12,920 nucleotides of DNA from a virus (IMGVR_UViG_2609459769_000019), one strand, 5' to 3'; shown: positions 547-12,920, counted from the first letter of the stretch. The notes: generated by a model not told the origin, from the sequence alone. Translations and numbers: made by a program.

Positions 547-875
547 TAAATAGTCTCCTCTTCATGGCTGTTTGCATACACGTAAATAAACGTCTGCCAT
601 GCAGGCTTATAACGGTTCAGAATACATTCCAGCGCACCGCCTTCATAAATACGCAGCGGCGTGAGAATATCATCCAGCACATTCATATTCCGGTAGCCGG
701 TTTCACTGTTAATCGTGACAATACTGACCCACTGTGAATCCGGTGATGGCTGAATATCTATTTCATAACCAAACTCTGCCGCAAACCGGATATAAAATTC
801 ACGGTTAAGAGAGGGTTTCATCCGGTATTTATTCCCGGCATAACGCTGACGCTCCTGAATGGTTGCGCCGGTCAT
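546..875 (-). CDS. C-terminal fragment of a Mu gp48 / DUF2313-like tail (baseplate) protein, translatable from an internal ATG (109 aa)
   Basis: ATG at 875 overlaps the stop of the preceding ORF (ATGA); segments FYIRFAAEFGYEIDI and LECILNRYKPAWQTFIYVY resemble the conserved C-terminal half of YmfQ/gp48-like proteins as I remember them; homology-like sequence (YLGLPECD) continues upstream of the ATG in the same frame until a stop at 915-917. Confidence 0.4.
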   Translation of the reverse strand: MTGATIQERQRYAGNKYRMKPSLNREFYIRFAAEFGYEIDIQPSPDSQWVSIVTINSETGYRNMNVLDDILTPLRIYEGGALECILNRYKPAWQTFIYVYANSHEEETI

Positions 876-1159
876 ATCACATTCCGGTAACCCCAGATAA
901 TGGCAACGGTGCCTTCAAAGGTTTTGTTCACGATGGCGTAGCCATAGGCTTTCATCTTCTCGATGACGCGGGAGCCGATCCACTCACGGAACTGCGGGAA
1001 CTGCCCCAGCCAGCCGTAGGTGTTGGATTTCGACGTGGACGGTACGGTCATCGCAATTTTCTGGTACTGAGACGGAGCCATGGACATCCCGGCCTGAAAA
1101 TCAGAACGGTAGCCCGTCATCAGGGCGGTGATCATCGCCGGTGTGATCGGGGTAGGCAT
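872..1159 (-). pseudogene. T: Truncated major head subunit (Mu T-like), N-terminal 95 codons only
   Basis: ATG at 1159 overlapping the stop of the I-like gene (TAATG) with upstream AAGAGGAAA; N-terminus ...SNTYGWLGQFPQFREWIGSRV...NKTFEGTV matches the Mu-type major head protein N-terminal pattern; frame stops at 874-872, whereas full-length proteins of this family are about 300 aa. Confidence 0.6.
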
Positions 1160-2283
1160 TATTGCATTTCCTCTTTCATTTTCAGGAACTCGGCTTCGGT
1201 TTTACCCAGCAGATGGGCGGCGGCGATATCTTCAGCCGACAGCGCAGCGGTGGCGGTCTTTTTATCCGGCACGGTTACGGTGTCGGTCTGAAGAGTGGTC
1301 AGAGCCGCAACCGGCTGGCGGGCGTCAAGCTGTGCAGAAAGTGCCGCAACACCAATCTGTTGTCCGAGTCCTTCCATGTATCCGCGTTCGCTTTTGAAAA
1401 TGCGTCCTTCGGACTCGGCCTTATCCAGCAACTGCTCCAGCGTGGTGCTGCCGTGTTGTGCCGACAACGCGACATATTCGGTACGCAGGGCGTTATACGT
1501 CTCAACGGGCACGTATTTCGTCAGATCAATAGTGCCGCCAGTTGGTGTGCCTTTTGCGGTTTCCAGCTCTGCCGACAGGCTGGCAACCTGCGTTTTCAGG
1601 GTGTCGTGCGCATCCGCACGGGTTTTGATCCCGGTAAGGGCAGACAGCGCCGCCGTGCCCAGTTCCGGTGTAAATTCGTCACCGTCGGCCACGGTCAGAC
1701 CGAGCGCCGTCAGCAACTGGCGTAATTGCTCATTCATGGAGGTGTCCTTTAAAGGAGGGTTTAAGGCGTTATAAAGGTCATCCGCCGACAGTGCGGCGAC
1801 AGGATTCATGCCAGTCAGACCGGGGTCACCGGTAATAGCCAGCATCCGAAGCTCAACAGGTTCACCGGTGATTTCGTCATAACCAATCACCGGGGAAAAC
1901 CAGGGAAATTCGTTATTGCGCAGGTGTTCAATGGCCGGAGGGTTCCAGTCCGGACGCACTTCAAAACCCCGCTCTTCACTGAAGCGGAAGTTTTCCGGTG
2001 AGGCCATGACAAAACCGGCAGCCGGTGCCGGATGCCCCTTAATCAGGGTCTGGTGGTTGTAGTCAATTTTTACCGGCTGATTGAGCGCCACAACCCGGGA
2101 TACCATGCGCTCAACGGCCGCATGGTTAATCAGCCAGCCTTCCGCCGGTTTTTCCGGGCGACCGTCACGGGCCTTTACCCGACCGGCTGGCATGATCTGA
2201 CACCAGTCACCGTCCCCGTCTGCGGACAGGCTGATGGCATTCAGAATGGCATAAGCAAGTTTGGGCGTGTTTTTCGTCTTCAT
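1159..2283 (-). CDS. I: Head maturation protease / scaffold (Mu I-like), 374 aa
   Basis: ATG at 2283; size and position (after G, before T) as in Mu; Ala/Leu-rich, coiled-coil-like C-terminal half consistent with an embedded scaffold domain. Confidence 0.75.
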   Translation of the reverse strand: MKTKNTPKLAYAILNAISLSADGDGDWCQIMPAGRVKARDGRPEKPAEGWLINHAAVERMVSRVVALNQPVKIDYNHQTLIKGHPAPAAGFVMASPENFRFSEERGFEVRPDWNPPAIEHLRNNEFPWFSPVIGYDEITGEPVELRMLAITGDPGLTGMNPVAALSADDLYNALNPPLKDTSMNEQLRQLLTALGLTVADGDEFTPELGTAALSALTGIKTRADAHDTLKTQVASLSAELETAKGTPTGGTIDLTKYVPVETYNALRTEYVALSAQHGSTTLEQLLDKAESEGRIFKSERGYMEGLGQQIGVAALSAQLDARQPVAALTTLQTDTVTVPDKKTATAALSAEDIAAAHLLGKTEAEFLKMKEEMQ

Positions 2284-2460
2284 TCCGGCAGCATAAGCCG
2301 GTGTTTTTCGGGGCCGGTTTTGCGGGACTTCAGAAAGTGCTGACAGGGGAAAAATGAGAAAGGCGCTTCACGCAGATTTTAAAGCCCGTTAAATACAGGT
2401 TAGAAAATCACGACACGCGCCTGAAGAGGGTAAGGCAATGCGTTTGTATACCTTAAACCA
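2284..2460 (-). promoter_or_regulatory. G-I intergenic region: candidate late promoter for I; positional equivalent of the Mu central strong gyrase site
   Basis: One of only three sizeable non-coding gaps in the late region (177 bp); contains C-runs flanked by A/T runs (e.g. TTTTTCCCC on the coding strand); promoter role inferred from position. Confidence 0.3.
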
Positions 2461-2934
2461 TTACGGCGTTTCTGTGGCCTTTTTAAAGCGTTTTCTGATT
2501 TCGTCCATGATCTCCTGTTCTGCCACCTGATCAAAGCCCATATACGGACGTGCGCCAATGGCCGCCGGTCCCGGTGGCATACCAGGCAGGCCACCCCACT
2601 GATGAATGGCCGCATAAGGTTCATTTGATCCAATCAGCGCCCAGGTATCGCCATAATCCGTGGTCAGGCGGCGGGCCAGATCGCCGTTCAGTGTCAGGAT
2701 TTTGCCGGGCGTGTATCCCTTACGGGTACGCCACTTGCGGTAAGGATCTGACCAGTCATGCCAGCGTTCGCCGTCCGGCTCTTTTTCCTGTTCAAACGCC
2801 ATTTCTGACGATGACAGAAGACTCTCCGCCACACTGCGGGCCAGGTCTTTTCCGCCGCCCACAAACTGAAGCCGGGCAAACACCCGCTGGAGACGCGTAA
2901 CGTCAACAACGACAGCGGCATCAATGGATGACAT
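2461..2934 (-). CDS. G: Virion morphogenesis protein (Mu G-like), 157 aa
   Basis: ATG at 2934 with GGAGG 5 nt upstream; size and position match Mu G. Confidence 0.7.
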   Translation of the reverse strand: MSSIDAAVVVDVTRLQRVFARLQFVGGGKDLARSVAESLLSSSEMAFEQEKEPDGERWHDWSDPYRKWRTRKGYTPGKILTLNGDLARRLTTDYGDTWALIGSNEPYAAIHQWGGLPGMPPGPAAIGARPYMGFDQVAEQEIMDEIRKRFKKATETP

Positions 2935-2974
2935 ATTGCCTCCGCATAAAGGATGAATATAAAATAAACAGGCG

Positions 2975-3054
2975 GTCAGTGTACGCTTAACTGGTAAAGT
3001 CGGTGCCTGCCTCCGGGTGGATCATGTATGCGGGTTCGACCCCCGCCACTGACC
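2975..3054 (+). other. tRNA-like structural element (7-bp acceptor-like stem plus canonical T-arm) in the F-G intergenic region; not a complete tRNA
   Basis: GTCAGTG (2975-2981) pairs perfectly with CACTGAC (3047-3053); internal 5-bp stem GCGGG/CCCGC (3030-3034 / 3042-3046) closes a 7-nt loop TTCGACC (T-loop-like); I could not fold a convincing anticodon arm by hand and no CCA is encoded. Confidence 0.25.
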
Positions 3055-3055
3055 G

Positions 3056-4387
3056 TTAATCAATTTGTCCTTCCAGCACCTCAAGCATTCCGCCCCGGAT
3101 ATCCGATTTCAGCTTATCCATATTGATAACCCGGTAAGCATTCACAATCACATCCAGTTTGTCGGGCTGACGTTTCAGACTGTACGGTGCATTAACGGCA
3201 ATCTGCACACTGCCATCCTGATTTTCCACGATATACATCAGATTGTTGTGCCGTTTGTCCCACAGTACCGCTTTTGGCCTTGCCAGCATTGCCGGTAAGC
3301 GCCCGAAGTCCTCCGGCGTCAGAGCGATGCCGTCATTCTGATGTTTCACACTGTCCGCATGGAGCACATTTTTACCGCTCATCGCCAGCAGGCGGGCCGG
3401 TGGCGTTCCCGTCCGGCTTTCCACTGCCTGCGCAATGCTTTCAGTCATAAAGCCCAGCGTGCGGATATCGTTACCACCTCGCCGGGTCTGCATGATGTTT
3501 TTTGCCCAGATGCGGAACGCCAGCTGCCGCTCCGGGCTGTTGTTCATCTCCTGAACCACCATTTCCCGTAACGCCGGGCTTTTCACCTCGATCAGTTTGC
3601 GGATCAGCGCCTGGTCTGTGCCGAACGCTGCCGAGCCGGGGTTATATGACCAGCCCACATCCGGTGTCATGGTTCTGGTGCCATCTGAATATGTGGTCAC
3701 CGGCATTTCTCTGACTTCTCCGGTCTGTTTATCCACGCCAGCCTCAACATTGCGGGTGGAGAGATGATCCTCACCGGATGAAACGGATAACCCCATTGCA
3801 TCCAGACGGGCCTGAGACAATGGCCGCACACGGCAGCGGCAGTTCCAGCCATTGGGCGGGTAGTGTGTTTTCCAGAACGGATCGTCATAGCGGAATACCA
3901 GACCGTTAAGGGCGGAATGCGACGGGCGGGTACGGCTGTCCATGACCGCCACATACTGCCAGAACGGATGCGTGTCCGTGTTGTTCATCATCTGCGTGTA
4001 ACGCCCGGCATTGTAAGCCACACGGGTGTTCACGTTGTAAATCAGCGCCAGACGACGGGGACTGCCCAGCTGCACTTCTTCCGCGTTACCGTCGCTGTCC
4101 ACCACAATCTGCTTTCCCCACCATCCCAGCTTTTGCAGGCGTGGCGTCAGCGTGCGGATAAATGCTTTCTGTGAAATTCCCTCATCAATGGCCCGCTGCA
4201 CTTCGGCCTGTAACGTGGTCACCACATCCAGGCGTGCCGCTTTTGCTGCCGTGAATGAGCGGGCATGAACATCCGCGGCTGTTTCGAACCAGTTCCAGCT
4301 GATATGCGCCCCTTTGACACGGAAGTATGCTACCGCCTCTTTTGAGGGAAGCGTGGCGGCATAACCTAAATCAATCCCCTGTGTCAT
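3056..4387 (-). CDS. F: Head morphogenesis protein (Mu F-like, gp30 family), 443 aa
   Basis: ATG at 4387 overlapping the portal gene end by 17 nt; conserved WNCRCRV-type motif; position between portal and G as in Mu. Confidence 0.75.
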   Translation of the reverse strand: MTQGIDLGYAATLPSKEAVAYFRVKGAHISWNWFETAADVHARSFTAAKAARLDVVTTLQAEVQRAIDEGISQKAFIRTLTPRLQKLGWWGKQIVVDSDGNAEEVQLGSPRRLALIYNVNTRVAYNAGRYTQMMNNTDTHPFWQYVAVMDSRTRPSHSALNGLVFRYDDPFWKTHYPPNGWNCRCRVRPLSQARLDAMGLSVSSGEDHLSTRNVEAGVDKQTGEVREMPVTTYSDGTRTMTPDVGWSYNPGSAAFGTDQALIRKLIEVKSPALREMVVQEMNNSPERQLAFRIWAKNIMQTRRGGNDIRTLGFMTESIAQAVESRTGTPPARLLAMSGKNVLHADSVKHQNDGIALTPEDFGRLPAMLARPKAVLWDKRHNNLMYIVENQDGSVQIAVNAPYSLKRQPDKLDVIVNAYRVINMDKLKSDIRGGMLEVLEGQID

Positions 4388-5960
4388 CCAGCATCCCCTT
4401 CATTTCCGCAGCAAACATGGCATCACTGAGCAGCGTCATCAGGCGGGAATCATCCATTTCACGATAAAGGGCAGGCAGGTCTGCCAGCGCATCCGCCAGC
4501 CCCCGCGTTCTGATGGCATCAATGACCGGCTCCAGTACCGGGTCGATGGCCTCCTGTAAGCGGCGGGCAGGCACCGCGTCCCCCATATCATCCAGTTCAT
4601 CACGCGGCGTGCTTTTCGCTTCCGGCAGTCTGGCTGACAGCGCCGTCTGCTCTGTTTTTTCCTGTTTTTCCGGTGGTGTTTCCCTGTCGGTCTGAGCCGG
4701 TTCATTGCCACTCTGACGGACACGGAATATGGCTTCACCGGGCGTGGGCTGCGGAATACCGGTCTGCTCCCGTATCCAGGGATCAGAAATATCCATCCCC
4801 GTACTGAGCTGCATCACCGCACTGGTGATTTTGGTGATATCACCTGGTTCTTTGGTCTGGAAGCAGATACGTGGCAGACGGCGGATATCAATAGTGTGCG
4901 TGGTGTTCAGGGCGTACAGCGGATACACCAGATCGCGGTTCAGGGTTGCAGCCAGCTGCCGTAAATCAGAATCCCTGATTTCCCGGCGCACCTCGTTATG
5001 CACCTCACCCAGCGAGCGCGCGCCTTTGTCTCCGGCTTCCGTGGTCAGCGTGCCGCCGAGTATTGCTTTGGAGATGGAACGCTCCCCCCACGAAATCATG
5101 GTTTCAAATGGATCGGCCTGACCGTTTGCTGCCGCCTGAAATTCCAGCGACATCCCGGCCGGGATGATCCCGCCTGTACGTCGCCCGATATCCATCACCG
5201 CCCGCATCAGGGCGCTTTTCTGCTCCGGTGTTGCCCCGGACGGGTATTTCCCGACCTTCATCGGCAGTCCGTACACCTCCAGAAATTCGGCCAGATCGCG
5301 CACGGAATAGTTTTTGAAAATGAACGGCCAGATAAGCGTCCTGACAAGCCCCGTTGCGCCACCGTAACCGGTCCGTGAACGTGACTGATGCACTATCCAG
5401 CCAAAAGGCTGAAACGCCACCCCGGCATGGCTGCCGTCACGCAGCCGCAGTTCGCTCAAATCATCCGGGTTAAGGCAGAAATGCCCGCTGTCACGCCAGC
5501 GGATGGCGCGGATGATGTGCATTTTACCGAGCATCCCGTGCTCAATTTCCATGCAGGAATAGCCCTTCAGGATGGCATCCGTGGCGTCAAACAGCATGGC
5601 ATCAAACCAGTCTGCGGAATGCAGATATTCGTCGAGCATTTCCGCGTCCTTTTTCTCATTCGCGCTGGCGTTCGGTGGCGGCTCAATACTCCATGGCACC
5701 CCCTGAATGGCAAGACGTCGCTTGCCCAGCTCCGCAAAAAGGTGGGTGTCCTTTTCTTCAATATCAGCGGCCAGATCGGACTGGGCAATCAGATCGCCAC
5801 GTTCAGCCCCGCGAAGGCACTGCGCCGCCCGGTTCGGGGTGATACCCGAAGCCGGATGTTCAATATAACGGCTGGCAATCTGCGGAATATCCAGCGCGGC
5901 ACTCTGCATCTCCGGGTCAAAGGAGAAAGGTTTTCCGTCAGTATCAATGATGCGTCCCAC
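4371..5960 (-). CDS. Portal protein (Mu gp29-like), 529 aa
   Basis: GTG start at 5960 overlapping the terminase stop (TAGTG); large ORF immediately after the large terminase; size as expected for a Mu-type portal. Confidence 0.75.
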   Translation of the reverse strand: MGRIIDTDGKPFSFDPEMQSAALDIPQIASRYIEHPASGITPNRAAQCLRGAERGDLIAQSDLAADIEEKDTHLFAELGKRRLAIQGVPWSIEPPPNASANEKKDAEMLDEYLHSADWFDAMLFDATDAILKGYSCMEIEHGMLGKMHIIRAIRWRDSGHFCLNPDDLSELRLRDGSHAGVAFQPFGWIVHQSRSRTGYGGATGLVRTLIWPFIFKNYSVRDLAEFLEVYGLPMKVGKYPSGATPEQKSALMRAVMDIGRRTGGIIPAGMSLEFQAAANGQADPFETMISWGERSISKAILGGTLTTEAGDKGARSLGEVHNEVRREIRDSDLRQLAATLNRDLVYPLYALNTTHTIDIRRLPRICFQTKEPGDITKITSAVMQLSTGMDISDPWIREQTGIPQPTPGEAIFRVRQSGNEPAQTDRETPPEKQEKTEQTALSARLPEAKSTPRDELDDMGDAVPARRLQEAIDPVLEPVIDAIRTRGLADALADLPALYREMDDSRLMTLLSDAMFAAEMKGMLDDTGD

Positions 5961-7627
5961 TACCAGCCCCCCCGATCAAATTCATGATATGCCTCATCGT
6001 CATCACGATAACCGCCCTCCATTGCCCGCGACCGCTCCGGTAGCGCCTGACAGGCTGATTCATCCAGGATGAAGCCCTCCATGTATGACGCCCGGTTTGC
6101 CATACAGAGCGCCACGGCAAAATCACCATGGCGGCGGGCGTTCGCAGCCGTTGCGTTCTGGTCCTTCGTGCGCCCCTTGTCGATTTGCGGGATACCATTC
6201 ACTACCTTCACATGGCGCAAATCATCAAGCGTGGTCTGATGGCGGGCGACGAGGATATTCTGATCTTCAAACTCGGCTTTCAGTTTTGGCATCCACTCGC
6301 CGTACCACTTCGGCGACAACATCACGCAGTCGATGATATCCGGGCCAAAGGCCAGCAGTGCGGCCTCTGCCAGATAGCCGCCGTTACCGGTGGCGTCGAA
6401 CGCCGCACCGACCAGCGCCGGAACGCGGGTCAGGATGTACATCATCACCTGTTCCTGCTGGGCATACGGCAGGTTGCGCAGCTCCACGCGAAACACCTCG
6501 CGCTTTGCCAGGGATTCGGTGATTTCCAGCAGCACAAAGCAGGACAGGTCACCGGTGCGGGCAAAGTCTTCCCCGAAGCTGAAGCGGGAACGGGGATTTA
6601 ATTTCTCTAAAAGCGGTTTTAAATGTTCTTCACACCAGGTTAAAACTTCCGATTCACGCAGCCATGCGGCACGGCTGATGAAGTTGTCCGGGGCTTCAAA
6701 CGTCAGAATCGGGATGTCGCGGATCATCGCCATTTCAATAAGCGCGTGGGGGATATAGGCACCGCCGGATTTTTTCGGGATACAGCCGTATTCCTCGTCG
6801 GCATCCTCACGGGTCGGGGCGTTTTTGTAGAGATCATCACGCCATTTCTGCTCGCTTTCCGGTGACCATTCCTGATCGGTGACGTAACAGATACGACGGT
6901 ACAGCCCGTCCGCAATGGCATCATCCAGGGTTATGCGGTGGACGCTGTAATCCTTGCGCCCCTCGCGGGCTTCCTGAATGTACTGATTAAACAGATTATC
7001 GACGCCGTTATGCGTGGAGATAATACGCACGCGCGCGCCCCACATAGTGAGCGCCATTGCCGCCTTGAGAAGCTCATCCAGTGACTCGTGGAACGCGGCT
7101 TCATCAATCACCACATCCCCCTGAAGGCCGCGCAGGTTTGACGGACGGGAAGACAATGCCTGAATTTTGAATCCACTGTTCGGAAAGCGGATCATGTAGG
7201 TCAAAATTTCTTCTTTTTTATCCCGATCCCAGAATGTCTGCTCATACACATCAGCATCTGCCAGCTGGTTAAAGGCACGGGAGAACAGCGCGCAGGCAGA
7301 AATATATTCCAGCGCCATCTCCTGCTTTGATCCCACATAAAACACATTGCGGCCACCACGACGCTTCGGTTTTGCAGCAGTAATGACGTTACGCCCGGCT
7401 TCCGCCCAGGTAAGACCGGTGCGGCGGGATTTCTCCGCGATGCAGACCTGACTTTCATCTGCAAACCAGCGGGCCTGATAATCCAGAAACACCGGCATAT
7501 CACCGGGCAAATCAAGGCTGTCCGGCACATCCACGCCCAGCAGGGCTTTTTCACCTGACAGATCAATTTTGCGGGGAGGCGTCATTTGCATCAGTGAAGG
7601 CGACGTTTCTCTGGCTTTGTTCATCAT
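5960..7627 (-). CDS. Terminase large subunit (Mu gp28-like), 555 aa
   Basis: ATGATG at 7627-7622 overlapping the upstream stop (ATGA); N-terminal ATPase-like region (Walker-B-like VVIDEAAF) and C-terminal nuclease-like region; followed by the portal. Confidence 0.8.
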   Translation of the reverse strand: MMNKARETSPSLMQMTPPRKIDLSGEKALLGVDVPDSLDLPGDMPVFLDYQARWFADESQVCIAEKSRRTGLTWAEAGRNVITAAKPKRRGGRNVFYVGSKQEMALEYISACALFSRAFNQLADADVYEQTFWDRDKKEEILTYMIRFPNSGFKIQALSSRPSNLRGLQGDVVIDEAAFHESLDELLKAAMALTMWGARVRIISTHNGVDNLFNQYIQEAREGRKDYSVHRITLDDAIADGLYRRICYVTDQEWSPESEQKWRDDLYKNAPTREDADEEYGCIPKKSGGAYIPHALIEMAMIRDIPILTFEAPDNFISRAAWLRESEVLTWCEEHLKPLLEKLNPRSRFSFGEDFARTGDLSCFVLLEITESLAKREVFRVELRNLPYAQQEQVMMYILTRVPALVGAAFDATGNGGYLAEAALLAFGPDIIDCVMLSPKWYGEWMPKLKAEFEDQNILVARHQTTLDDLRHVKVVNGIPQIDKGRTKDQNATAANARRHGDFAVALCMANRASYMEGFILDESACQALPERSRAMEGGYRDDDEAYHEFDRGGW

Positions 7628-7872
7628 GCTTTACCTGTCAGAATGCTTTTGATTCGGGACTCAAGCTCTTCAGTCATCACGTCCACGCCGCTCAACTCAT
7701 CAGTGGCAGCCTCTGCCAGCAGCGAATGCAGTTGTTCCAGGGATATTTCCCCGGCAATGCTGAGTTCAGTCAACTCACGACATACCTTTATGGTTTCAGG
7801 AGGTAACTGTGTTGCAAGACTGAATGCTTTCTGATGGGCACTGCTCATCAGTGAGCGGTTATCTGTTGCCAT
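7624..7872 (-). CDS. Small protein (82 aa), paralogous to the C-terminus of the gp27-like protein
   Basis: ATG at 7872 preceded by AGGAGGTGA with 5-nt spacer; C-terminus ATDELSGVDVMTEELESRIKSILTGKA parallels gp27 C-terminus VTDELRGVDGMSEQIEFRIRQMLLGKA; nucleotide similarity visible between about 7627-7720 and 7886-7985. Confidence 0.5.
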   Translation of the reverse strand: MATDNRSLMSSAHQKAFSLATQLPPETIKVCRELTELSIAGEISLEQLHSLLAEAATDELSGVDVMTEELESRIKSILTGKA

Positions 7873-7882
7873 GATTCACCTC

Positions 7883-8464
7883 CTACGCCTTACCCAGCAG
7901 CATCTGCCTGATACGGAATTCGATCTGCTCGCTCATGCCATCCACGCCGCGCAACTCATCGGTGACCGCATTCGCCATCTCTTCAGCAAATGCGGCCCGG
8001 ATTTCTTTTTCACGCTTAATGCTGCGCTCGGCGGCACTTTCTGCACGCTGTGCCGACAGGAGGATGTCCTTAATAAGGCGCATATCCACATCGCTGTCGC
8101 TGTTCAGGGATTCGGTGGCGGCACGCAGACGGCGGTACATCAGGGCACGGGACATCTCCAGAATCAGTGCCGTGGTTTCACCGGTCGGCTTATCCCCCAG
8201 TTCGGCCATCATGGCTTTTGTCTGCTCGCGTAAATCACGCAGATTACGGGCAATCAGCTCATTACGGGAGGCTTCCCGGCTGATGGCCGCCGGTGAGAGC
8301 TGCTGCTCTTCCGGCAGACCTGCTTCACGGATCAGACGGTTGATTTCCTCGCGGATCTGGACCTGCGTCAGACGTTTTTCACGCAGCATTTCCAGCAGCG
8401 GCTTACGGATGCTGTCGGGGAGCAAATCCACCTTGCGTACACGGCCACGCGTCGGCTTATCCAT
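7883..8464 (-). CDS. Mu gp27-like protein (DUF3486), putative terminase small subunit / packaging DNA-recognition protein, 193 aa
   Basis: ATG at 8464 with AAGGGGG upstream; charged, coiled-coil-rich protein directly upstream of the large terminase as in Mu. Confidence 0.65.
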   Translation of the reverse strand: MDKPTRGRVRKVDLLPDSIRKPLLEMLREKRLTQVQIREEINRLIREAGLPEEQQLSPAAISREASRNELIARNLRDLREQTKAMMAELGDKPTGETTALILEMSRALMYRRLRAATESLNSDSDVDMRLIKDILLSAQRAESAAERSIKREKEIRAAFAEEMANAVTDELRGVDGMSEQIEFRIRQMLLGKA

Positions 8465-8466
8465 CG

Positions 8467-8757
8467 TTACCCCCTTGCGCGTGGTTTCTTCACACCCGGA
8501 ACAGTGGCACGACCTTCCGCCACATCCTGACCCCGGCCGGTCAGTTCAGCGATGAAATAACCGTTAACAAGCGTGCGCTTACGCACCAGTCCCTGCTCAG
8601 CAAGCCAGGCAATGTGGGTGTGAACGGTGTCGCGGGACACGCGGTGGCCGTAATCATCCAGGCAGTCCTGAAGCACGGATTCGCCCAGTTCGCCGTTGTA
8701 ATCCGCCAGCGACCGCAGAATGACAAGACGCTGATCTTCAGTAATGAAATCACTCAT
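8467..8757 (-). CDS. Small protein at the Mu gp26 position, possible winged-helix-like fold, 96 aa
   Basis: ATG at 8757 with AAGGAA upstream; overlaps the preceding gene by 8 nt; function not assignable from sequence. Confidence 0.5.
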   Translation of the reverse strand: MSDFITEDQRLVILRSLADYNGELGESVLQDCLDDYGHRVSRDTVHTHIAWLAEQGLVRKRTLVNGYFIAELTGRGQDVAEGRATVPGVKKPRARG

Positions 8758-9061
8758 TGTGTTTTTTCCTTACAGCCTGCTCCAGCAGCAGTTCGTTCTG
8801 ATGGGAGACGGATTTCAGGGTGGCATTGGTGGCCTTAAGCTCACCGCGCAGGGTGGTGATTTCGATATTGAGTCTGTTCACCTCCTGCTGCGTGGGCAGG
8901 CCGGAAATCCGGCTCTCCACCCGCTCAACCCGGTCGGAGAGTTTTTCAAAGGCCTCGCGGGGGACAAAGGTTTTGCGCATCAGCGCCATGAAGATCCCCC
9001 CGGCTGTGGCCGTTGCCGACAGGATCGGCACGACATAATCTTTAACGATGCTGACCCACAT
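8750..9061 (-). CDS. Mu gp25-like membrane protein (candidate releasin of the lysis cassette), 103 aa
   Basis: ATG at 9061 with GGAGG upstream; N-terminal hydrophobic segment VVPILSATATAGGIFMALM followed by a charged coiled-coil-like domain; lies between the lysis genes and the packaging genes. Confidence 0.45.
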   Translation of the reverse strand: MWVSIVKDYVVPILSATATAGGIFMALMRKTFVPREAFEKLSDRVERVESRISGLPTQQEVNRLNIEITTLRGELKATNATLKSVSHQNELLLEQAVRKKHNE

Positions 9062-9269
9062 GACCGGCCTCCATGATGTTCTGGCAGTTCACACAACGGA
9101 TGGCATCCGGCACGGCAACCAGACGGGCAGCCGGAATGTCACCCCCGCAGTCCGCGCATACACGCCTGCCCGGTGTCTCCGCCACCCGGCGCTTACGTGT
9201 CAGCCGGTCACAAAGGGCGCGTTCTGTTGCACGCTCCATGACTGCCTGAGCACAATCTGAATCATCCAT
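9042..9269 (-). CDS. TraR/DksA-family C4 zinc-finger protein, 75 aa
   Basis: ATG at 9269 preceded by AAGGAAAAAGG; CxxC...CxxC motif (CADCGG...CVNCQ); the longer track ORF (to 9335) lacks an RBS and overlaps the o-spanin. Confidence 0.65.
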   Translation of the reverse strand: MDDSDCAQAVMERATERALCDRLTRKRRVAETPGRRVCADCGGDIPAARLVAVPDAIRCVNCQNIMEAGHVGQHR

Positions 9270-9279
9270 ACCTTTTTCC

Positions 9280-9651
9280 TTACTTCGTCTTTCCTGCCGG
9301 AACAGCAGTCGTTCCGGCCATATCAGTAAATTCATGCTGTCGCTGTGTCTCCAGACGGCGGATGCTGGCCTTGTCCACGTTGCAGTTTTTAATCACCGCC
9401 AGCAGTTGCAGGTTGTAAGTGACCGATGCACCAAACGTGAACGGCTGCGGCGCGGGAGGGACCAGGCAGTCAGCCAGCCATTCAGCGGGGATCGGCACCG
9501 GCGGCACAGGGACGAATTTCACAGACGGCCCGCCGCACCCGGTCAGCCACATCATCAGGCACAGGCACAGCGGCAGCAGGCACCGTTGCCAGTGACCGGC
9601 GGACAATGCTCTGCTGTTCCTCGCTGTGCTGCATGTTCTGCTGTTTTTCAT
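9280..9651 (-). CDS. o-spanin (outer-membrane lipoprotein), overlapping the i-spanin in another frame
   Basis: ATG at 9651 with AAGGCGG upstream; signal peptide ending in lipobox LTGC; proline-rich mature region (PVPPVPIP, PPAPQP); start choice uncertain. Confidence 0.5.
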   Translation of the reverse strand: MKNSRTCSTARNSRALSAGHWQRCLLPLCLCLMMWLTGCGGPSVKFVPVPPVPIPAEWLADCLVPPAPQPFTFGASVTYNLQLLAVIKNCNVDKASIRRLETQRQHEFTDMAGTTAVPAGKTK

Positions 9652-9910
9652 TCGTGGCCGCCTTGCTGATTTGTGAAATGAGTTGCAGGGTGCGTTGCTG
9701 GTTTGCCAGCACCAGACGGGCTTCGTCCCGTTCACGCACAAGCACATGATTATTGTCCTCAAGGCGCTGCGTCTTCTGGTGCATTCCCCATACCACGGCA
9801 GCCAGCACGCTCATCACCCCCAGCGCCGCCATGCTCGCCCCGGCAATCAGGGCCGGTAAGGGATTGTTCACCACAGCCACAGTGCCCCCCGCAGCGCCAC
9901 AACGGCACAT
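9482..9910 (-). CDS. i-spanin (inner-membrane spanin subunit)
   Basis: N-terminal TM segment LPALIAGASMAALGVMSVLAAVVW followed by charged/Gln-rich coiled-coil-like periplasmic domain; directly downstream of the endolysin; ATG at 9910 chosen, but the track ORF starts at a TTG at 10003 inside lys, so the start is uncertain. Confidence 0.5.
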   Translation of the reverse strand: MCRCGAAGGTVAVVNNPLPALIAGASMAALGVMSVLAAVVWGMHQKTQRLEDNNHVLVRERDEARLVLANQQRTLQLISQISKAATNEKQQNMQHSEEQQSIVRRSLATVPAAAVPVPDDVADRVRRAVCEIRPCAAGADPR

Positions 9911-9944
9911 AACAGCGCAATCATGAGCGGTCGACAGAGCCGGT

Positions 9945-10445
9945 TCAGACTTTCGGCAAGTCGTAGCGACATAACCATTCATCCGCCGAACGGCGGGCCT
10001 CAAGGCCGGGGAGTTTCACCCCCTTTGAATAAATCCAGCGGATATACTGCTTACAGGACGCGGGCATCTGTCCGGCATTGATAAGGCGCAGAAGCGTGGA
10101 GTTGCGGAAGTTCGTTTCACCGGCCCAGAAGATCCACGAAGCCAGCGCCACCGTCTGACCACGGGTAAGTGGCACCTGAACACGCCGGTCAATGGCCGCA
10201 AAGGCCCATTTCATGTCCTTTTCCAGCAGTTCCAGACATTCTTCATCGGTTTTTGTCATACCCGGTTTCACATCCGGGCCGGTATGGCCGTGGCAGATGG
10301 TGGGGGTGCCGGTGGGGTCGAGATACGTGGTGTTTTCTTTCCCTTCCCAGTAGCCGGTGTAGTGCGTGGCAATAGTGAACGTCCCGGCTCCGGCCAGAAC
10401 AAGGGCAATCAGCTTTTTACGCAGTGGCGCGGGGAGTTTTGGCAT
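9945..10445 (-). CDS. lys: Endolysin, T4-lysozyme-like (GH24) with N-terminal signal-anchor-release (SAR) segment, 166 aa
   Basis: ATG at 10445; N-terminal LIALVLAGAGTFTIATHY hydrophobic stretch after a basic N-terminus; catalytic E-x8-D-x5-T triad (EGKENTTYLDPTGTPT) followed by GHTG motif. Confidence 0.85.
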   Translation of the reverse strand: MPKLPAPLRKKLIALVLAGAGTFTIATHYTGYWEGKENTTYLDPTGTPTICHGHTGPDVKPGMTKTDEECLELLEKDMKWAFAAIDRRVQVPLTRGQTVALASWIFWAGETNFRNSTLLRLINAGQMPASCKQYIRWIYSKGVKLPGLEARRSADEWLCRYDLPKV

Positions 10446-10516
10446 TGTTACGCTGTCTCATGGTGTTCTCTGAGCCAGCGTAACCGTGGAAAAAAGGGGG
10501 CAGGATTTGCGGAATA
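10446..10516 (-). promoter_or_regulatory. Candidate activator-dependent late promoter upstream of the endolysin (Plys equivalent)
   Basis: 71-bp gap between the activator gene and lys; coding strand contains CCTGCCCCCTTTTTTCC; assignment by position only. Confidence 0.3.
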
Positions 10517-10939
10517 TCAGAAAAGCCGGGGCTGCGTGCGCTCCTGATGCAGGCGACGCTGGTTGCGGATAACGGAGTAAATCTGCGTCTCTGACATCTG
10601 GTAATGGCGGCGCAGGGTTTCAATTTTTTCACCCTGGCTCCAGCGGGAAAAAATCTCATTATTGCGCAGTTCGGTGAAAAGGGATTCACCGACCGGGAGA
10701 TAATAACCACGCCCGCCCATGTACCCGGCCTGTGCGGCCGCAACCTTACGGGCAAGCATTCCCGCCTGAGCAGATTCAATCCCCTGACGGTGCAGTTCAG
10801 CACTGATCACATCAACCAGGTCACGCAGCGTGCCGGGCCAGTTCTTTTTCAGCTCATCATCAGGAATATCATCCAGACGGTCAATCAGCGCGTGCAGCTG
10901 TTCGCTGTCACCAAACATGCTCATCTGTGTTTCAGCCAT
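10517..10939 (-). CDS. Mor/C-family transcriptional activator (140 aa; by size and position more likely the C-type late activator)
   Basis: ATG at 10939 with GGAGG 6 nt upstream; acidic N-terminus and basic C-terminal HTH-like region typical of Mor/C proteins; sits immediately upstream of lys. Confidence 0.75.
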   Translation of the reverse strand: MAETQMSMFGDSEQLHALIDRLDDIPDDELKKNWPGTLRDLVDVISAELHRQGIESAQAGMLARKVAAAQAGYMGGRGYYLPVGESLFTELRNNEIFSRWSQGEKIETLRRHYQMSETQIYSVIRNQRRLHQERTQPRLF

Positions 10940-10971
10940 ACCCGCCTCCGGTCATCATTACACAGGGCAAG

Positions 10972-11005
10972 TTTAAAATAAAAATCCCGCGCTGTGGCGG
11001 GATTT
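10972..11005 (-). terminator. Rho-independent terminator after the truncated transposase gene (possibly doubling as an activator-binding dyad)
   Basis: Minus-strand AAATCCCGC-CACAGC-GCGGGATTT hairpin (9-bp GC-rich stem, 6-nt loop; plus 10982-11005) followed by TTATTTT; starts 5 nt after the stop codon at 11012-11010. Confidence 0.55.
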
Positions 11006-11009
11006 GGGG

Positions 11010-11918
11010 TTAAAAAGGGGAGGATTCTTCATACAGCCTGCAAACGCGCTCATAACTCATCACTGTACGCGCTGACACCCGGCCTTTTTGTTTCACCACT
11101 TCCGGCAGTTTCTTCATTGCGCGGCGAATGGTGTCATAAGACGGCATGATATCGAGCATATAAGGCTCATCAGCGTGCCGGTACTGCCATTCAGCGACAA
11201 AATCCTCGTAAGCCTCGGTCATTGGTCGGCCGTTTGACTGGCGATACTGCGCCAGAAATTCGGGCAGCCAGTTAATATCTTCGGCTTTTATTTCCTGGCG
11301 CTTACCAGGTGCCAGCAAAAGCAGGCGTTCAGCGGCGTTCTGCGCCTTGTTAAAGGCTGCAATCCAGCGTTTCAGCGTGATTTCACTCAACGCACGGCTG
11401 TTTCCCTTTTTGGCGTTCGCCGTCTCAACCATTGCCACAATGCGCTCGTCCAGTTGCGAACGTGCCAGGTTGTCAACGATAAACCGGATAGCCTTCGCAC
11501 AGCTGAAACCAGGTTGTTGCGCGACTTTCAGAACTTCGCTGACGATCGCGATTCGTGCATCAGCCACCTGGCGCTGGTTTTCAGTCAGAGCATTAAGGCG
11601 TTCGACCATCAGTTGTGGTGATCCGCGATATGCCTCCACCGCATCAACCACGGCAGGCGAGCGTCTGGCCTTTGTCACCACTGGAGCCGGTGATTCATCG
11701 ACTTTTTGAGTCATCAGTTGCAGGGCGTAGCGTTCACGTAATGCCTGCTGCGTCACTTCAGGTAAACAGTCGATGCTGTATTCAGTTGCTTTAGAGCCTG
11801 AGCGACGACGGGAACAACAGCTTTTCCCTTGTACGTAACGTTGTAATGCCTGGCGAATACCTTTTGTTGTAGCAGGCATTCCGGGCGCGCCAATCAGTTC
11901 TTTTGCAATGACATACAT
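11010..11918 (-). CDS. Truncated Mu transposase A homologue: N-terminal DNA-binding domain only (302 aa), no DDE catalytic core
   Basis: ATG at 11918, 1 nt after the ner stop; N-terminus APGMPATTKGIRQALQRY...GSKATEYSIDCLPEVTQQALRER resembles the winged-helix enhancer-binding domain of MuA/Mu repressor as I remember it; ORF stops at about 300 aa against about 660 aa for full-length MuA; terminator follows directly. Confidence 0.55.
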   Translation of the reverse strand: MYVIAKELIGAPGMPATTKGIRQALQRYVQGKSCCSRRRSGSKATEYSIDCLPEVTQQALRERYALQLMTQKVDESPAPVVTKARRSPAVVDAVEAYRGSPQLMVERLNALTENQRQVADARIAIVSEVLKVAQQPGFSCAKAIRFIVDNLARSQLDERIVAMVETANAKKGNSRALSEITLKRWIAAFNKAQNAAERLLLLAPGKRQEIKAEDINWLPEFLAQYRQSNGRPMTEAYEDFVAEWQYRHADEPYMLDIMPSYDTIRRAMKKLPEVVKQKGRVSARTVMSYERVCRLYEESSPF

Positions 11919-11919
11919 A

Positions 11920-12168
11920 TCATGACGCCTTTCTCATATAGCTCTTAACCTGGTATCGACTGGGCCAGATTTCTTCAGGCGATACCCCAAGAGCATCAGC
12001 AATTATTTGCTGATACGGTCGGCAAGGAGTACGTAATACGCTTTTCAGCGAATCCCTGCTGTAACCAGCCTTTAAAGATAAAGAGCGCAGTGATAAGCCA
12101 GCCATGTGTAAGCGCGCCTTGATGATTTCAGGCGGCCAATCGTGATCTGAAACTTCTCTTCTACTCAT
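11920..12168 (-). CDS. ner: Ner-like DNA-binding regulator (82 aa)
   Basis: ATG at 12168 with AGAGGAAG upstream; ...LSLRSLSLKAGYSRDSLKSVL...QQIIADALGVSPEEIWPSRY matches the Mu Ner family signature (IIA.AL...P...WPSRY); divergent from the repressor gene. Confidence 0.85.
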   Translation of the reverse strand: MSRREVSDHDWPPEIIKARLHMAGLSLRSLSLKAGYSRDSLKSVLRTPCRPYQQIIADALGVSPEEIWPSRYQVKSYMRKAS

Positions 12169-12335
12169 ACTTCCTCTATTCTAAAAAGTTACCCGCGCGG
12201 ATATTCGTGCGGATATCTGTACGGGTAAATAATAGAACAAACAAAAGAACCAAATCAAGGTATTTTGTTCTTTTTATTCTTTGCGGTGTTTTTGTTATTA
12301 ATATCAATAAGATAAATAAAAAGGAACCTGAGAGC
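12169..12335. promoter_or_regulatory. Divergent immunity control region between ner and the repressor gene (candidate operators and promoters)
   Basis: AT-rich 167-bp spacer; tandem 12-bp direct repeat CGYGCGGATATY at 12194-12205 and 12206-12217, flanked by inverted TTACCCG (12189-12195) / CGGGTAA (12222-12228); second inverted repeat AGAACAAA (12234-12241) / TTTGTTCT (12264-12271); TAGAAT -10-like hexamer on the minus strand. Confidence 0.5.
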
Positions 12336-12920
12336 ATGAACATGAAAAACAGTTCTTTTCTCGACGAAGGAAAAGAACCAGTGATCGAACGGATTTTTCG
12401 TCTTGCAGAGCGTTACAAATCGAGAAGTGAGGCGGCTAGAGCATGGGGAATAAACGTTCAGACATTGCAGAACTACTACAAAAGGAGAAACAATCAGCCG
12501 CCACCACAACCAAGAAAGCACCATCTCCAGAACATTGCAGAAAGAGAACATGTATCTATGGAGTGGCTAGTCAATGGTTATGGTGATGAGCCAAGCATGA
12601 AAAAAGAACCAATTGAACAAACAAAAAGAACAAAAAAACAAAGAATTGATGATAGTGATTCCATCATCATGAGGGCGTGGGACTCGCTAACTTCATCTGA
12701 ACAAGAGATTTTGTCCAACTTATTGATCAGAAAAGGGGCCGAACTACTAACCGTTTTGCTTGATACAGATATTCAAAAACTGCACTCATTGAGCGGAGTC
12801 AAAAGAGCACTAGCATTGAGTCTACAAGAGTTACCCGATGATACTGTAAGAGAGATTTATGAAGAATGTGAAGCTAAGGTTAATCATTTAAATGTAACCC
12901 AGAAAAAGGCTGGTGCGTAA
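12336..12920 (+). CDS. Prophage repressor (194 aa): HTH N-terminal domain joined to a Mu c-like C-terminal domain
   Basis: ATG at 12336 (second ATG at 12342) preceded by AAGGAA; the track's longer ORF starts at a GTG at 12207 inside the operator region; N-terminus has a classical HTH (RSEAARAWGINVQTLQNY); C-terminal segment LLIRKGAELLTVLLDTDIQKLHSLSGVKRALALSLQELPDDTVREI resembles the Mu repressor C-terminal region from memory; gene is distinctly AT-rich. Confidence 0.65.
   Translation: MNMKNSSFLDEGKEPVIERIFRLAERYKSRSEAARAWGINVQTLQNYYKRRNNQPPPQPRKHHLQNIAEREHVSMEWLVNGYGDEPSMKKEPIEQTKRTKKQRIDDSDSIIMRAWDSLTSSEQEILSNLLIRKGAELLTVLLDTDIQKLHSLSGVKRALALSLQELPDDTVREIYEECEAKVNHLNVTQKKAGA

Follow-up and report, generated by a model that had tools for sequence, protein, structure and literature searches.

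A Mu-like lysis cassette with a putative SAR endolysin, overlapping spanin genes and a conserved 36-codon reading frame in an E. coli prophage remnant

We analysed a putative lysis cassette in IMGVR_UViG_2609459769_000019, a viral DNA sequence of 12,920 nucleotides (nt); the whole of this stretch is called the window below, and positions are counted from its first letter. The minus strand of the window represents a Mu-like Escherichia coli prophage. The repressor gene (12336-12920) lies on the plus strand; the activator gene, the lysis genes, gp26, gp27 and the 82-aa ORF treated below are on the minus strand. The gene order is repressor, ner, a transposase truncated to 302 amino acids (aa), a Mor/C-family activator, the lysis cassette, gp26, gp27, an 82-aa open reading frame (ORF), terminase, portal, F, G, protease I and a truncated major head gene. 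The cassette, at 10445-8750, encodes an endolysin of the signal-arrest-release (SAR) type (gene lys), an i-spanin, an o-spanin, a TraR-family zinc-finger protein and a DUF2730 protein; the genes are closely packed, and the proteins are positional counterparts of Mu gp22, gp23, gp23.1, gp24 and gp25. An additional ORF of 36 codons, orf36, lies between the endolysin and i-spanin genes.

The order activator, lys, orf36, i-spanin, o-spanin, TraR, DUF2730, gp26 and gp27 was invariant in every full-length locus of this type that was fetched, with the complete order present in 55 loci (several of the contigs were fetched twice). Gene identities, motifs, gene order, conservation and intactness are reported as observed in the sequences. 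The E-values of the family matches are such that chance is excluded for the assignments of the cassette genes.

Genes of the lysis cassette

The endolysin gene (10445-9945) codes for a 166-aa protein of the GH24 family of lysozymes, with matches to PF00959 Phage_lysozyme (E 1.2e-35) and PHROG 7 'endolysin' (E 8e-51). The catalytic triad E34-X8-D43-X5-T49 is present. The N-terminus has the basic residues K3, R9, K10 and K11, the last three of which stand directly N-terminal to the SAR-type segment L12-W33. This segment is an uncharged, weakly hydrophobic stretch of 22 residues with 50% G/A/S/T/C and a mean Kyte-Doolittle hydropathy of 1.09, compared to 1.19 in the SAR segment of Mu gp22. The catalytic E34 abuts W33, the end of the segment. 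A pairwise comparison with Mu gp22 gave 40% identity (E 8e-35).

The i-spanin gene (9880-9482, start GTG 9880) encodes a 132-aa protein that matched PHROG 214 'Rz-like spanin' (E 5.6e-30) and had no match in Pfam or NCBIfam. We observed an N-terminal transmembrane domain (TMD; best KD19 2.16, residues 1-35), a long periplasmic helix, and Cys120 and Cys125 near the C-terminus; a single-sequence AlphaFold2 (AF2) model placed helices at residues 9-98 and 109-122. Identity to Mu gp23 is 26% (E 3e-6). The GTG at 9880 is aligned with the ATG of relatives of 72% identity. Longer starts at 10003, 9982 and 9910 were considered and rejected, since the ratio of nonsynonymous to synonymous differences (pN/pS) upstream of 9880 is 1.78, which means no purifying selection, and the ATG of that clade aligns with 9880. 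In RefSeq relatives, the Prokaryotic Genome Annotation Pipeline (PGAP) put the i-spanin start at ATG 9910 or ATG 9832 (142 or 116 aa). Neither of its models, at 20585-20935 in the intact prophage of E. coli AF39 (L001) and at 1535-1963 in L112, has the 132-aa start supported by the comparison.

The o-spanin precursor of 123 aa (9651-9280, start ATG 9651) matched PF23793 LysC (E 4.5e-16) and PHROG 3001 (E 3.5e-40), and is 43% identical to Mu gp23.1 (E 2e-16). Its lipobox, LTGC, occupies residues 35-38, with Cys38 followed by Gly at +2, and the mature protein of 85 aa is 13% proline. The start (MKN...) is kept across clades, including the relatives of 72% identity. The o-spanin gene overlaps the i-spanin gene by 170 nt in another frame and extends 202 nt beyond its end; the architecture of the pair is overlapped rather than embedded. 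The PGAP models of LysC in relatives (72 or 80 aa; 20383-20601 in L001 and 1923-2165 in L112) lose the signal peptide and the lipobox.

The next gene (9269-9042) encodes a TraR-family C4 zinc-finger protein of 75 aa. It matched PF01258 (E 1.3e-11; 44.7 bits with a cut-off of 24.9) and TIGR02419 (69.6 bits with a cut-off of 59.7; profile positions 1-64 of 64). The motifs are an N-terminal DxxDxA (D2, D5, A7) and CxxC-X17-CxxC. The protein aligned end to end with F-plasmid TraR (5w1s_M; E 4e-4), with D2, D5 and A7 opposite D3, D6 and A8. The gene has a ribosome-binding site (RBS) AGGA at -7, and the TraR-like, DUF2730 and gp26 genes are connected by RBSs and by overlaps of 8-20 nt. The DxxDxA motif is required for the function of TraR and Orf73, and phage homologues of TraR (lambda Orf73, P2 Orf82) bind RNA polymerase, inhibit ribosomal RNA promoters and increase phage yield (PMC9239242). 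By analogy, the protein probably binds in RNA polymerase's secondary channel and redirects host transcription late in the cycle, with no direct role in the envelope.

In all loci fetched, of this type as well as of the Mu type, an ORF of 64-75 aa with the CxxC...CxxC pattern is found directly upstream of the DUF2730 gene. We considered Mu gp24 as a member of the TraR family and rejected it, as it has neither a Pfam TraR match nor the DxxDxA motif. A profile-profile comparison gave a probability of only 71% over the zinc ribbon (E 3.6e-5), and we regard gp24 as a positional and probably distant relative.

The DUF2730 gene (9061-8750), the fifth after lys when orf36 is counted, encodes a releasin-like protein of 103 aa. 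Residues 6-97 matched positions 3-101 of the 102 of PF10805, i.e. the whole profile (E 1.2e-22), and BLASTP gave 33% identity to Mu gp25 (E 2e-18). An uncharged N-terminal TMD, Y9-M28, is followed by R29-K30 at the junction of membrane and cytoplasm. The AF2 model has helices at residues 2-28, 35-53 and 58-102, so that the cytoplasmic domain is helical, and the positive-inside rule predicts an N-out/C-in topology. The gene has a GGAGG RBS at -6, and its wider context comprises a Mu-type transposase fragment, a Mor-family gene, gp27 and a portal gene. A sequence search of the PDB found nothing significant for this protein. A scan of one genome per species with the DUF2730 alignment yielded only 7 loci and no intermediate relatives.

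An earlier note on this DNA had named these genes from the sequence alone, and most of what it said holds. The N-terminal SAR-type segment of the endolysin is confirmed by its composition and hydropathy, by the basic residues upstream and by the catalytic triad. The overlapping spanins that it described (TM and coiled coil in one, LTGC lipobox and a proline-rich sequence in the other) agree with PHROG, Pfam, the AF2 model and the motifs. The C4 zinc-finger protein that it likened to TraR/DksA scores above the cut-offs of both PF01258 and TIGR02419. Its small TM protein at the Mu gp25 position is a DUF2730 protein over its whole length, with the identity to gp25 given above. The view that a TraR homologue is odd in a lysis cluster did not stand; a zinc-ribbon gene occupies that position in every related locus examined.

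We consider it likely that these genes form the lysis module within the late 'lys' operon of a transposable, Mu-like E. coli prophage and that they work as in Mu. Chamblee et al. (2022, mBio, PMC9239132) identified gp22 of Mu as a SAR endolysin. The same study found gp25 to be required for the release of gp22, a dependence set by the adjacent basic residues K6 and K7 of gp22, where Arg can replace Lys. It described gp25 as a protein with a TMD at the N-terminus, RR/RK as junction motif and a domain in the cytoplasm. Mu was concluded to be without a holin; gp19, gp20 and gp25 were not lethal on triggering with dinitrophenol, and co-expression of gp22 and gp25 from plasmids was enough for lysis (PMC9239132).

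If the cassette works in the same way, the Mor/C-type activator would switch on a promoter directly upstream of the endolysin gene. The endolysin would be exported by the Sec system and kept inactive in the inner membrane by its SAR segment, with R9-K10-K11 as a cytoplasmic lock. The DUF2730 releasin, in its N-out/C-in orientation, would help the SAR segment to escape, upon which the enzyme would refold and degrade the peptidoglycan, and the complex of i-spanin and o-spanin would fuse the inner and outer membranes. No holin would be involved; the co-transcribed TraR-family protein would act on RNA polymerase and not on the envelope, and the membrane peptide of orf36 would be an additional component in this lineage. 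The dependence on a releasin, the absence of a holin function and the order of events are carried over from the experiments with Mu.

Several points weigh against this reading. Identity to the Mu proteins is only 26-43% for the endolysin, the spanins and the DUF2730 protein, and the TraR-like protein has only the zinc ribbon in common with gp24. The SAR segment has 3 Gly compared to 6 in Mu gp22, and the authors of the Mu study thought that those 6 might matter (PMC9239132). The hydropathy values come from our own scripts and not from TMHMM, SignalP or LipoP. The cytoplasmic domain of the DUF2730 protein is net basic, with 11 D/E and 14 K/R (12 and 11, respectively, in Mu gp25), whereas that of gp25 was described as predominantly anionic, a description that did not extend to a requirement (PMC9239132). 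Genes of the DUF2730 family also adjoin cytoplasmic (non-SAR) endolysins in other Mu-like phages (PMC9239132), and the function of the family may be broader than SAR release. Finally, the orf36 peptide could permeabilise the membrane, in which case 'holin-less' would be wrong for this lineage.

The occurrence of DUF2730 genes beside non-SAR endolysins and a cytoplasmic charge unlike that of gp25 would also fit a protein with another role, such as morphogenesis or DNA packaging, next to an endolysin that escapes spontaneously. The gene does precede gp26, gp27 and terminase, and spontaneous release of SAR endolysins can occur, at a low rate (PMC9239132). We regard such a role as very improbable, because the type I similarity to gp25 extends over the whole length and the partner is a Mu-type muramidase with a dibasic motif before its SAR segment, the feature that confers gp25-dependence in Mu.

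The holin question and a conserved 36-codon reading frame

A canonical holin is a small membrane protein with at least one TMD and a hydrophilic, highly charged C-terminal domain. We scanned window ORFs of at least 25 codons for hydrophobic segments and compared the cassette ORFs in five representatives of 72-100% DNA identity. The conserved hydrophobic ORFs on the sense strand of the cassette were those of the endolysin, i-spanin, o-spanin, DUF2730 protein and orf36, and none further. No convincing TMD was seen in the other annotated coding sequences of the intact relative, no cassette ORF matched a holin family in Pfam, PHROGs or NCBIfam, and a tblastn search of loci of this type found no homologue of gp19 or gp20, two Mu proteins that had at one time been put forward as holin and antiholin. 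Antisense hydrophobic ORFs, for example 9606-9749 on the plus strand, were rejected because neither their length nor their sequence is conserved in relatives. The earlier note had stated that no canonical holin is evident, with a holin gene named beforehand as a refuting observation; this agrees with the search, in which no holin gene was found. We infer, rather than demonstrate, that the cassette is holin-less.

The conserved ORF that the earlier note missed, orf36 (9978-9868), has 36 codons, is unannotated and encodes MVMSLRLAESLNRLCRPLMIALLCAVVALRGALWLW. The N-terminal half of the peptide is polar and basic, and the C-terminal segment is hydrophobic. The first 11 codons (33 nt) are shared with the end of the endolysin gene, read in the -1 frame. 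The TGA overlaps the i-spanin start, as GTGA in the window and 8 nt beyond the ATG in the 72%-identity clade. We found orf36 open and 36 codons long in 20/20 distinct DNA variants of about 72-97% DNA identity, taken from IMG/VR contigs, a Citrobacter braakii genome and E. coli. The exception is one contig with a 1-nt insertion (fetched twice, as L027 and L059).

In the 60-64 nt of orf36 that are free of overlap, the minimum numbers of changes at codon positions 1, 2 and 3 were 12, 7 and 21. Seven codons with an invariant amino acid vary synonymously, including TTA/CTG/TTG at Leu23, and the summed pN/pS was 0.48, compared to 1.78 and 0.91 in the other two frames. With randomised placement of the observed substitutions, the P for so small a number of amino-acid changes was 0.0009-0.009 in 4 of the 8 clade pairs and 0.09-0.67 in the other 4; the same randomisation gave no signal in the other two frames. 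Based on these comparisons orf36 is probably a real gene, and we hold this view with good confidence.

The annotation of orf36 is sparse. It had no match in Pfam, PHROG or NCBIfam, it did not match the PHROG of gp20, and PGAP left it unannotated in the two E. coli RefSeq relatives inspected. In public protein sets it was seen only as an 'Uncharacterised protein' of Shigella sonnei and as a hypothetical protein of a Caudoviricetes metagenome-assembled genome (MAG). In the phage collection it was present only in two records of Shiga toxin (Stx) phages with an inserted Mu-like phage.

Could the conservation of orf36 have arisen without a gene, from a constraint on DNA or RNA (the RBS region of the i-spanin gene, an RNA structure) or from the scarcity of stop codons in GC-rich sequence? 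By our own estimate, a frame of 36 codons would be open by chance with a probability of about 0.3 in sequence of about 60% GC. Another frame is open over the stretch as well, and there is no strong Shine-Dalgarno sequence. Some comparisons with the 72% clade are weak (P 0.2-0.67), and the lack of a PGAP call in the two relatives points the same way. However, the substitutions are frame-specific, Leu codons change two bases and yet stay synonymous, and the replacements are conservative (L/V/I, A/S, F/Y). The length is also equal in all variants apart from the single contig with the insertion, and some gene callers did call the ORF (the Shigella sonnei and Caudoviricetes entries). We therefore find it unlikely that orf36 is not a gene.

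A programmed -1 frameshift from the endolysin gene into orf36, which would yield a C-terminally anchored endolysin, was also considered. It was rejected, since the 33-nt overlap contains no X XXY YYZ heptamer. Such a frameshift is further disfavoured by the start codon of orf36 itself, an ATG or GTG that is kept in all variants.

With orf36 taken as a gene, its possible roles include the timing of lysis and a link between the translation of the spanin gene and that of the endolysin gene. It ends within its hydrophobic segment, without a charged tail at the C-terminus, and so it is not a canonical holin; it is shorter than any holin known to us. Its product might be an unrecognised inner-membrane lysis factor that times or triggers release by depolarisation or by contact with the SAR segment or the TMD of the releasin, giving a three-part release system. 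We put this forward as a speculative idea with a rather low probability. If it were true, lysis would depend on SAR endolysin, releasin and mini-peptide, and 'holin-less' lysis would be less simple here than in Mu.

A stricter form of this idea, that orf36 is a minimal depolarising or pore-forming factor (a pinholin stand-in or a partner of the releasin) which times SAR release, so that the cassette is not truly holin-less, appears to us slightly less probable again. The ORF is coding and conserved in a lysis cluster and has a hydrophobic C-terminal segment. Its overlaps tie its translation to the endolysin and i-spanin genes, with its slot between endolysin and spanins. There is also a precedent in LambdaSo, where Lcc6 (65 aa), a small extra TM protein, is essential in lysis with a SAR endolysin (bioRxiv 10.1101/2024.01.23.576932). 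Against this stand the length of 36 aa, the absence of a charged C-terminal tail and of any family match, and an invariant Arg30 that breaks the hydrophobic stretch. In addition, Mu lyses without such a gene, and its similarly built gp20 (39 aa, one TMD) was shown to be dispensable and not a holin (PMC9239132).

Activator, deletions and expression of the cassette

Upstream of the cassette lies an intact gene (10939-10517) for a Mor/C-family late transcription activator of 140 aa, with matches to PF08765 (E 4.9e-31) and to PHROG 532, 'late transcriptional activator' (E 2.6e-44). The protein is 40% identical to Mu C (E 5e-38) and 27% identical to Mor (E 9e-16). Its motifs QMSMF (residues 5-9) and QPRLF (residues 136-140) are only near the consensus sequences Qx[D/E][L/M]F and QPDLF. 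In Mu C the clamp-binding motifs are essential for function and toxicity, and they tie late transcription to replication (PMC12867686). In the annotated intact relative we saw one Mor/C-family gene, directly after gp16, which is the position of Mor in Mu; its product is closer to C.

The intergenic region 10446-10516 is a candidate activator-dependent late promoter. It contains the conserved block CCGCAAATCCT at 10512-10502, a C-run and a T-run, and a -10-like TACGCT at 10482-10477. Relatives at 90% and at 72% identity keep the block, part of which also occurs in the annotated Mu Plys. On these grounds the region is a probable late promoter that depends on the activator. A scan for the sigma-70 consensus found no promoter upstream of the endolysin gene, a result that is uninformative for promoters without a -35 element. 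The Mu C-box TTAT-N5-6-ATAA (PMC12867686) was not convincingly located by eye in the sequence upstream of the endolysin gene.

A strong terminator-like hairpin with a 9-bp stem and a T-run (11005-10982) separates the truncated transposase ORF from the activator gene, inside a segment common to intact relatives. The arrangement suggests that the activator is expressed by read-through from the early operon. The hairpin is directly upstream of the activator gene, and there is no space for a separate promoter before the activator RBS.

By BLAST the window corresponds to the intact prophage of E. coli AF39 in three colinear blocks: window 898-11080 to L001 12001-22183 (10,183 nt, 99.1% identity, no gaps), window 11076-12920 to L001 29953-31797 (99.5% identity), and window 571-900 to L001 1-330. 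The window thus amounts to an intact E. coli prophage less two internal blocks. At the junction 11076-11080, with a 5-nt overlap, the equivalent of L001 22184-29952 (about 7.8 kb) is lost, a stretch with most of gp16, the gam and kil genes, the gene for the B-like ATPase and, of the transposase, the C-terminal two-thirds. At the junction 898-900, with a 3-nt overlap, the equivalent of L001 331-12000 (about 11.7 kb) is lost, from the major head gene T through the tail and baseplate genes. The overlaps of 3 and 5 nt are consistent with microhomology-mediated deletion. The final ~23 codons of the truncated transposase ORF now come from the 3' region of gp16.

Another IMG/VR contig, UViG_2609459799_000018, is identical to the window. 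Among 5,426 complete E. coli genomes, 278 (about 5%) had matches to the window, and the same remnant was found in none.

The block of 10,183 nt aligns with the intact prophage without a gap, so the cassette genes are undisrupted. The identity of about 99% to the intact relative means that this intactness reflects the recency of the deletions and not selection. The earlier note had called the cassette intact in an otherwise deleted prophage, and this is what we found: all genes are full length, and the window is an intact prophage minus two blocks. It had also thought that the cassette may be expressible and lethal to the host if the late activator is supplied. No outside supply is needed, as the activator gene is intact in cis, 72 bp upstream of the endolysin gene on the same strand.

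Because the remnant is unable to replicate by transposition and the repressor is retained, the cassette is probably silent in the remnant. If expression did occur, it is predicted by analogy with Mu, where gp22 and gp25 are sufficient, to kill the host. The module could be a dead remnant, whose activator-dependent late promoter fails to fire effectively in the absence of transposase, B and replication and which is intact only through the recency of the deletions. Consistent with this are the identity of 99.1-99.5% to the intact prophage outside the two deletions, the cut transposase and the missing B. The stimulation of C-dependent transcription in Mu by the sliding clamp, i.e. its coupling to replication, the hairpin ahead of the activator gene and the absence of an identical remnant among the complete genomes also fit. 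We take this to be a serious possibility, though not the favoured one. On the other side, the repressor, ner, the activator, the promoter-like block and all cassette genes are intact, host replication too leaves clamps on DNA, and any expression would be harmful given that plasmid-borne gp22 and gp25 suffice for lysis in Mu. Furthermore, the question is one of expression and not of identity, and a dead module would be compatible with our reading of the region as a Mu-type lysis module. The finding further shows that a lysis module which is complete and potentially lethal can survive in defective prophages alongside the module's own activator, restrained only by the prophage repressor.

Besides the cassette, we recorded features of the neighbouring genes. 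The gene after the DUF2730 gene in the operon (8467-8757) overlaps the DUF2730 stop and encodes a gp26-like winged-helix protein (PHROG 436, NCBIfam VpaChn25_0724; DNA 70% identical to Mu gene 26); it does not belong to the lysis genes. The 82-aa ORF (7624-7872) sits between gp27, the terminase small subunit (7883-8464), and the large terminase. It has a C-terminal motif in common with gp27 (DELSGVDVMTEELESRIKSILTGKA and DELRGVDGMSEQIEFRIRQMLLGKA, respectively), PHROG 30922 matches both, and it is missing from some relatives. The likeness may stem from the partial duplication of a tail that interacts with terminase.

Three members of the 72%-identity clade (L029, L030, L034) have about 300-440 bp inserted between the o-spanin and TraR-like genes. 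The insertion of L029, the only one looked at closely, carries a moron-like Ala/Thr-rich ORF of 121 aa (5093-5458) inside the lysis operon.

Scans of the window for tRNA and Rfam families found nothing. RefSeq annotates a 'tRNA-OTHER' in L001 at 14078-14157 on the plus strand, between G and F. Neither ARAGORN nor Rfam gave a match for its counterpart in the window (about 2975-3054).

Comparison with Mu and other lysis systems

The architecture described here is already published for Mu (PMC9239132). The cassette is a diverged orthologue, and the only new item is orf36. The Mu record AF083977 annotates the SAR endolysin gp22, the i-spanin gp23, an LTGC o-spanin, gp24, the releasin gp25, the winged-helix protein gp26 and the terminase small subunit gp27, all downstream of C and a C-dependent promoter. 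The likeness extends to the order and orientation of the genes downstream of a Mor/C activator, the absence of a detected holin, the dibasic residues before the SAR segment and the RK junction in the releasin-type protein.

The differences from Mu are distributed over the whole region. Mu has both Mor and C, compared to the single Mor/C-family gene seen in the annotated relative. The genes gp18-gp20 of Mu are absent from loci of this type. The TraR-family protein has the DxxDxA motif, whereas gp24 has neither this motif nor a Pfam TraR match. In Mu, gp22 and gp23 overlap directly, whereas orf36 stands between the endolysin and i-spanin genes here. The SAR segment contains 3 Gly and the DUF2730 tail is net basic, compared to 6 Gly and a slightly acidic tail in Mu.

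Phage Mu is the only experimental system for the releasin pathway. A natural variant that has diverged to 26-43% identity is therefore useful for finding out what the mechanism requires. The features regarded as important, namely a dibasic lock, the SAR segment and the releasin's RK junction, are kept in the variant. What has changed is the content of Gly and the charge on the tail of the releasin, along with the presence of a true TraR protein and of an added mini-ORF. As a candidate extra lysis factor, orf36 is cheap to test, and it is the only element that could separate this lineage mechanistically from Mu.

The lysis systems of phage 21 (S21/R21), P1 (Lyz) and APSE also have a GH24 SAR endolysin that is exported and has a membrane-tethered inactive form. 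In those systems, however, depolarisation by a pinholin releases the enzyme, and the cassette has no gene for a 2-TMD pinholin. Outside Mu, the closest relatives of the endolysin (about 40% identity) are annotated as SAR endolysins or lysozymes, some of them beside holins of the phage 21 type.

Similarity to the Y-K-lysA-lysB-lysC region of P2 lies in the o-spanin, which belongs to the Pfam family 'Rz1-like LysC', and in spanin genes that overlap without being nested. P2 also has a gene for a membrane protein, lysA, between the endolysin and spanin genes, the position of orf36. P2 differs in its canonical holin Y and its cytoplasmic endolysin, and LysA is much larger, has several TMDs and is not known to resemble orf36.

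Among very small membrane proteins of lysis regions, Mu gp20 resembles orf36 in its size and in a single TMD at the extreme C-terminus, and is the product of a dispensable middle gene. LambdaSo Lcc6 differs from orf36 in having its TMD at the N-terminus and in acting with a pinholin. Neither gp20 nor Lcc6 has sequence similarity to orf36.

The TraR-like protein compares with F-plasmid TraR and with phage homologues such as lambda Orf73 and P2 Orf82; it aligns end to end with TraR and has the DxxDxA motif and four cysteines. The gene differs from orf73 in its place: orf73 belongs to the pL operon of lambda, and the TraR-like gene belongs to the late lysis and head operon of a transposable phage.

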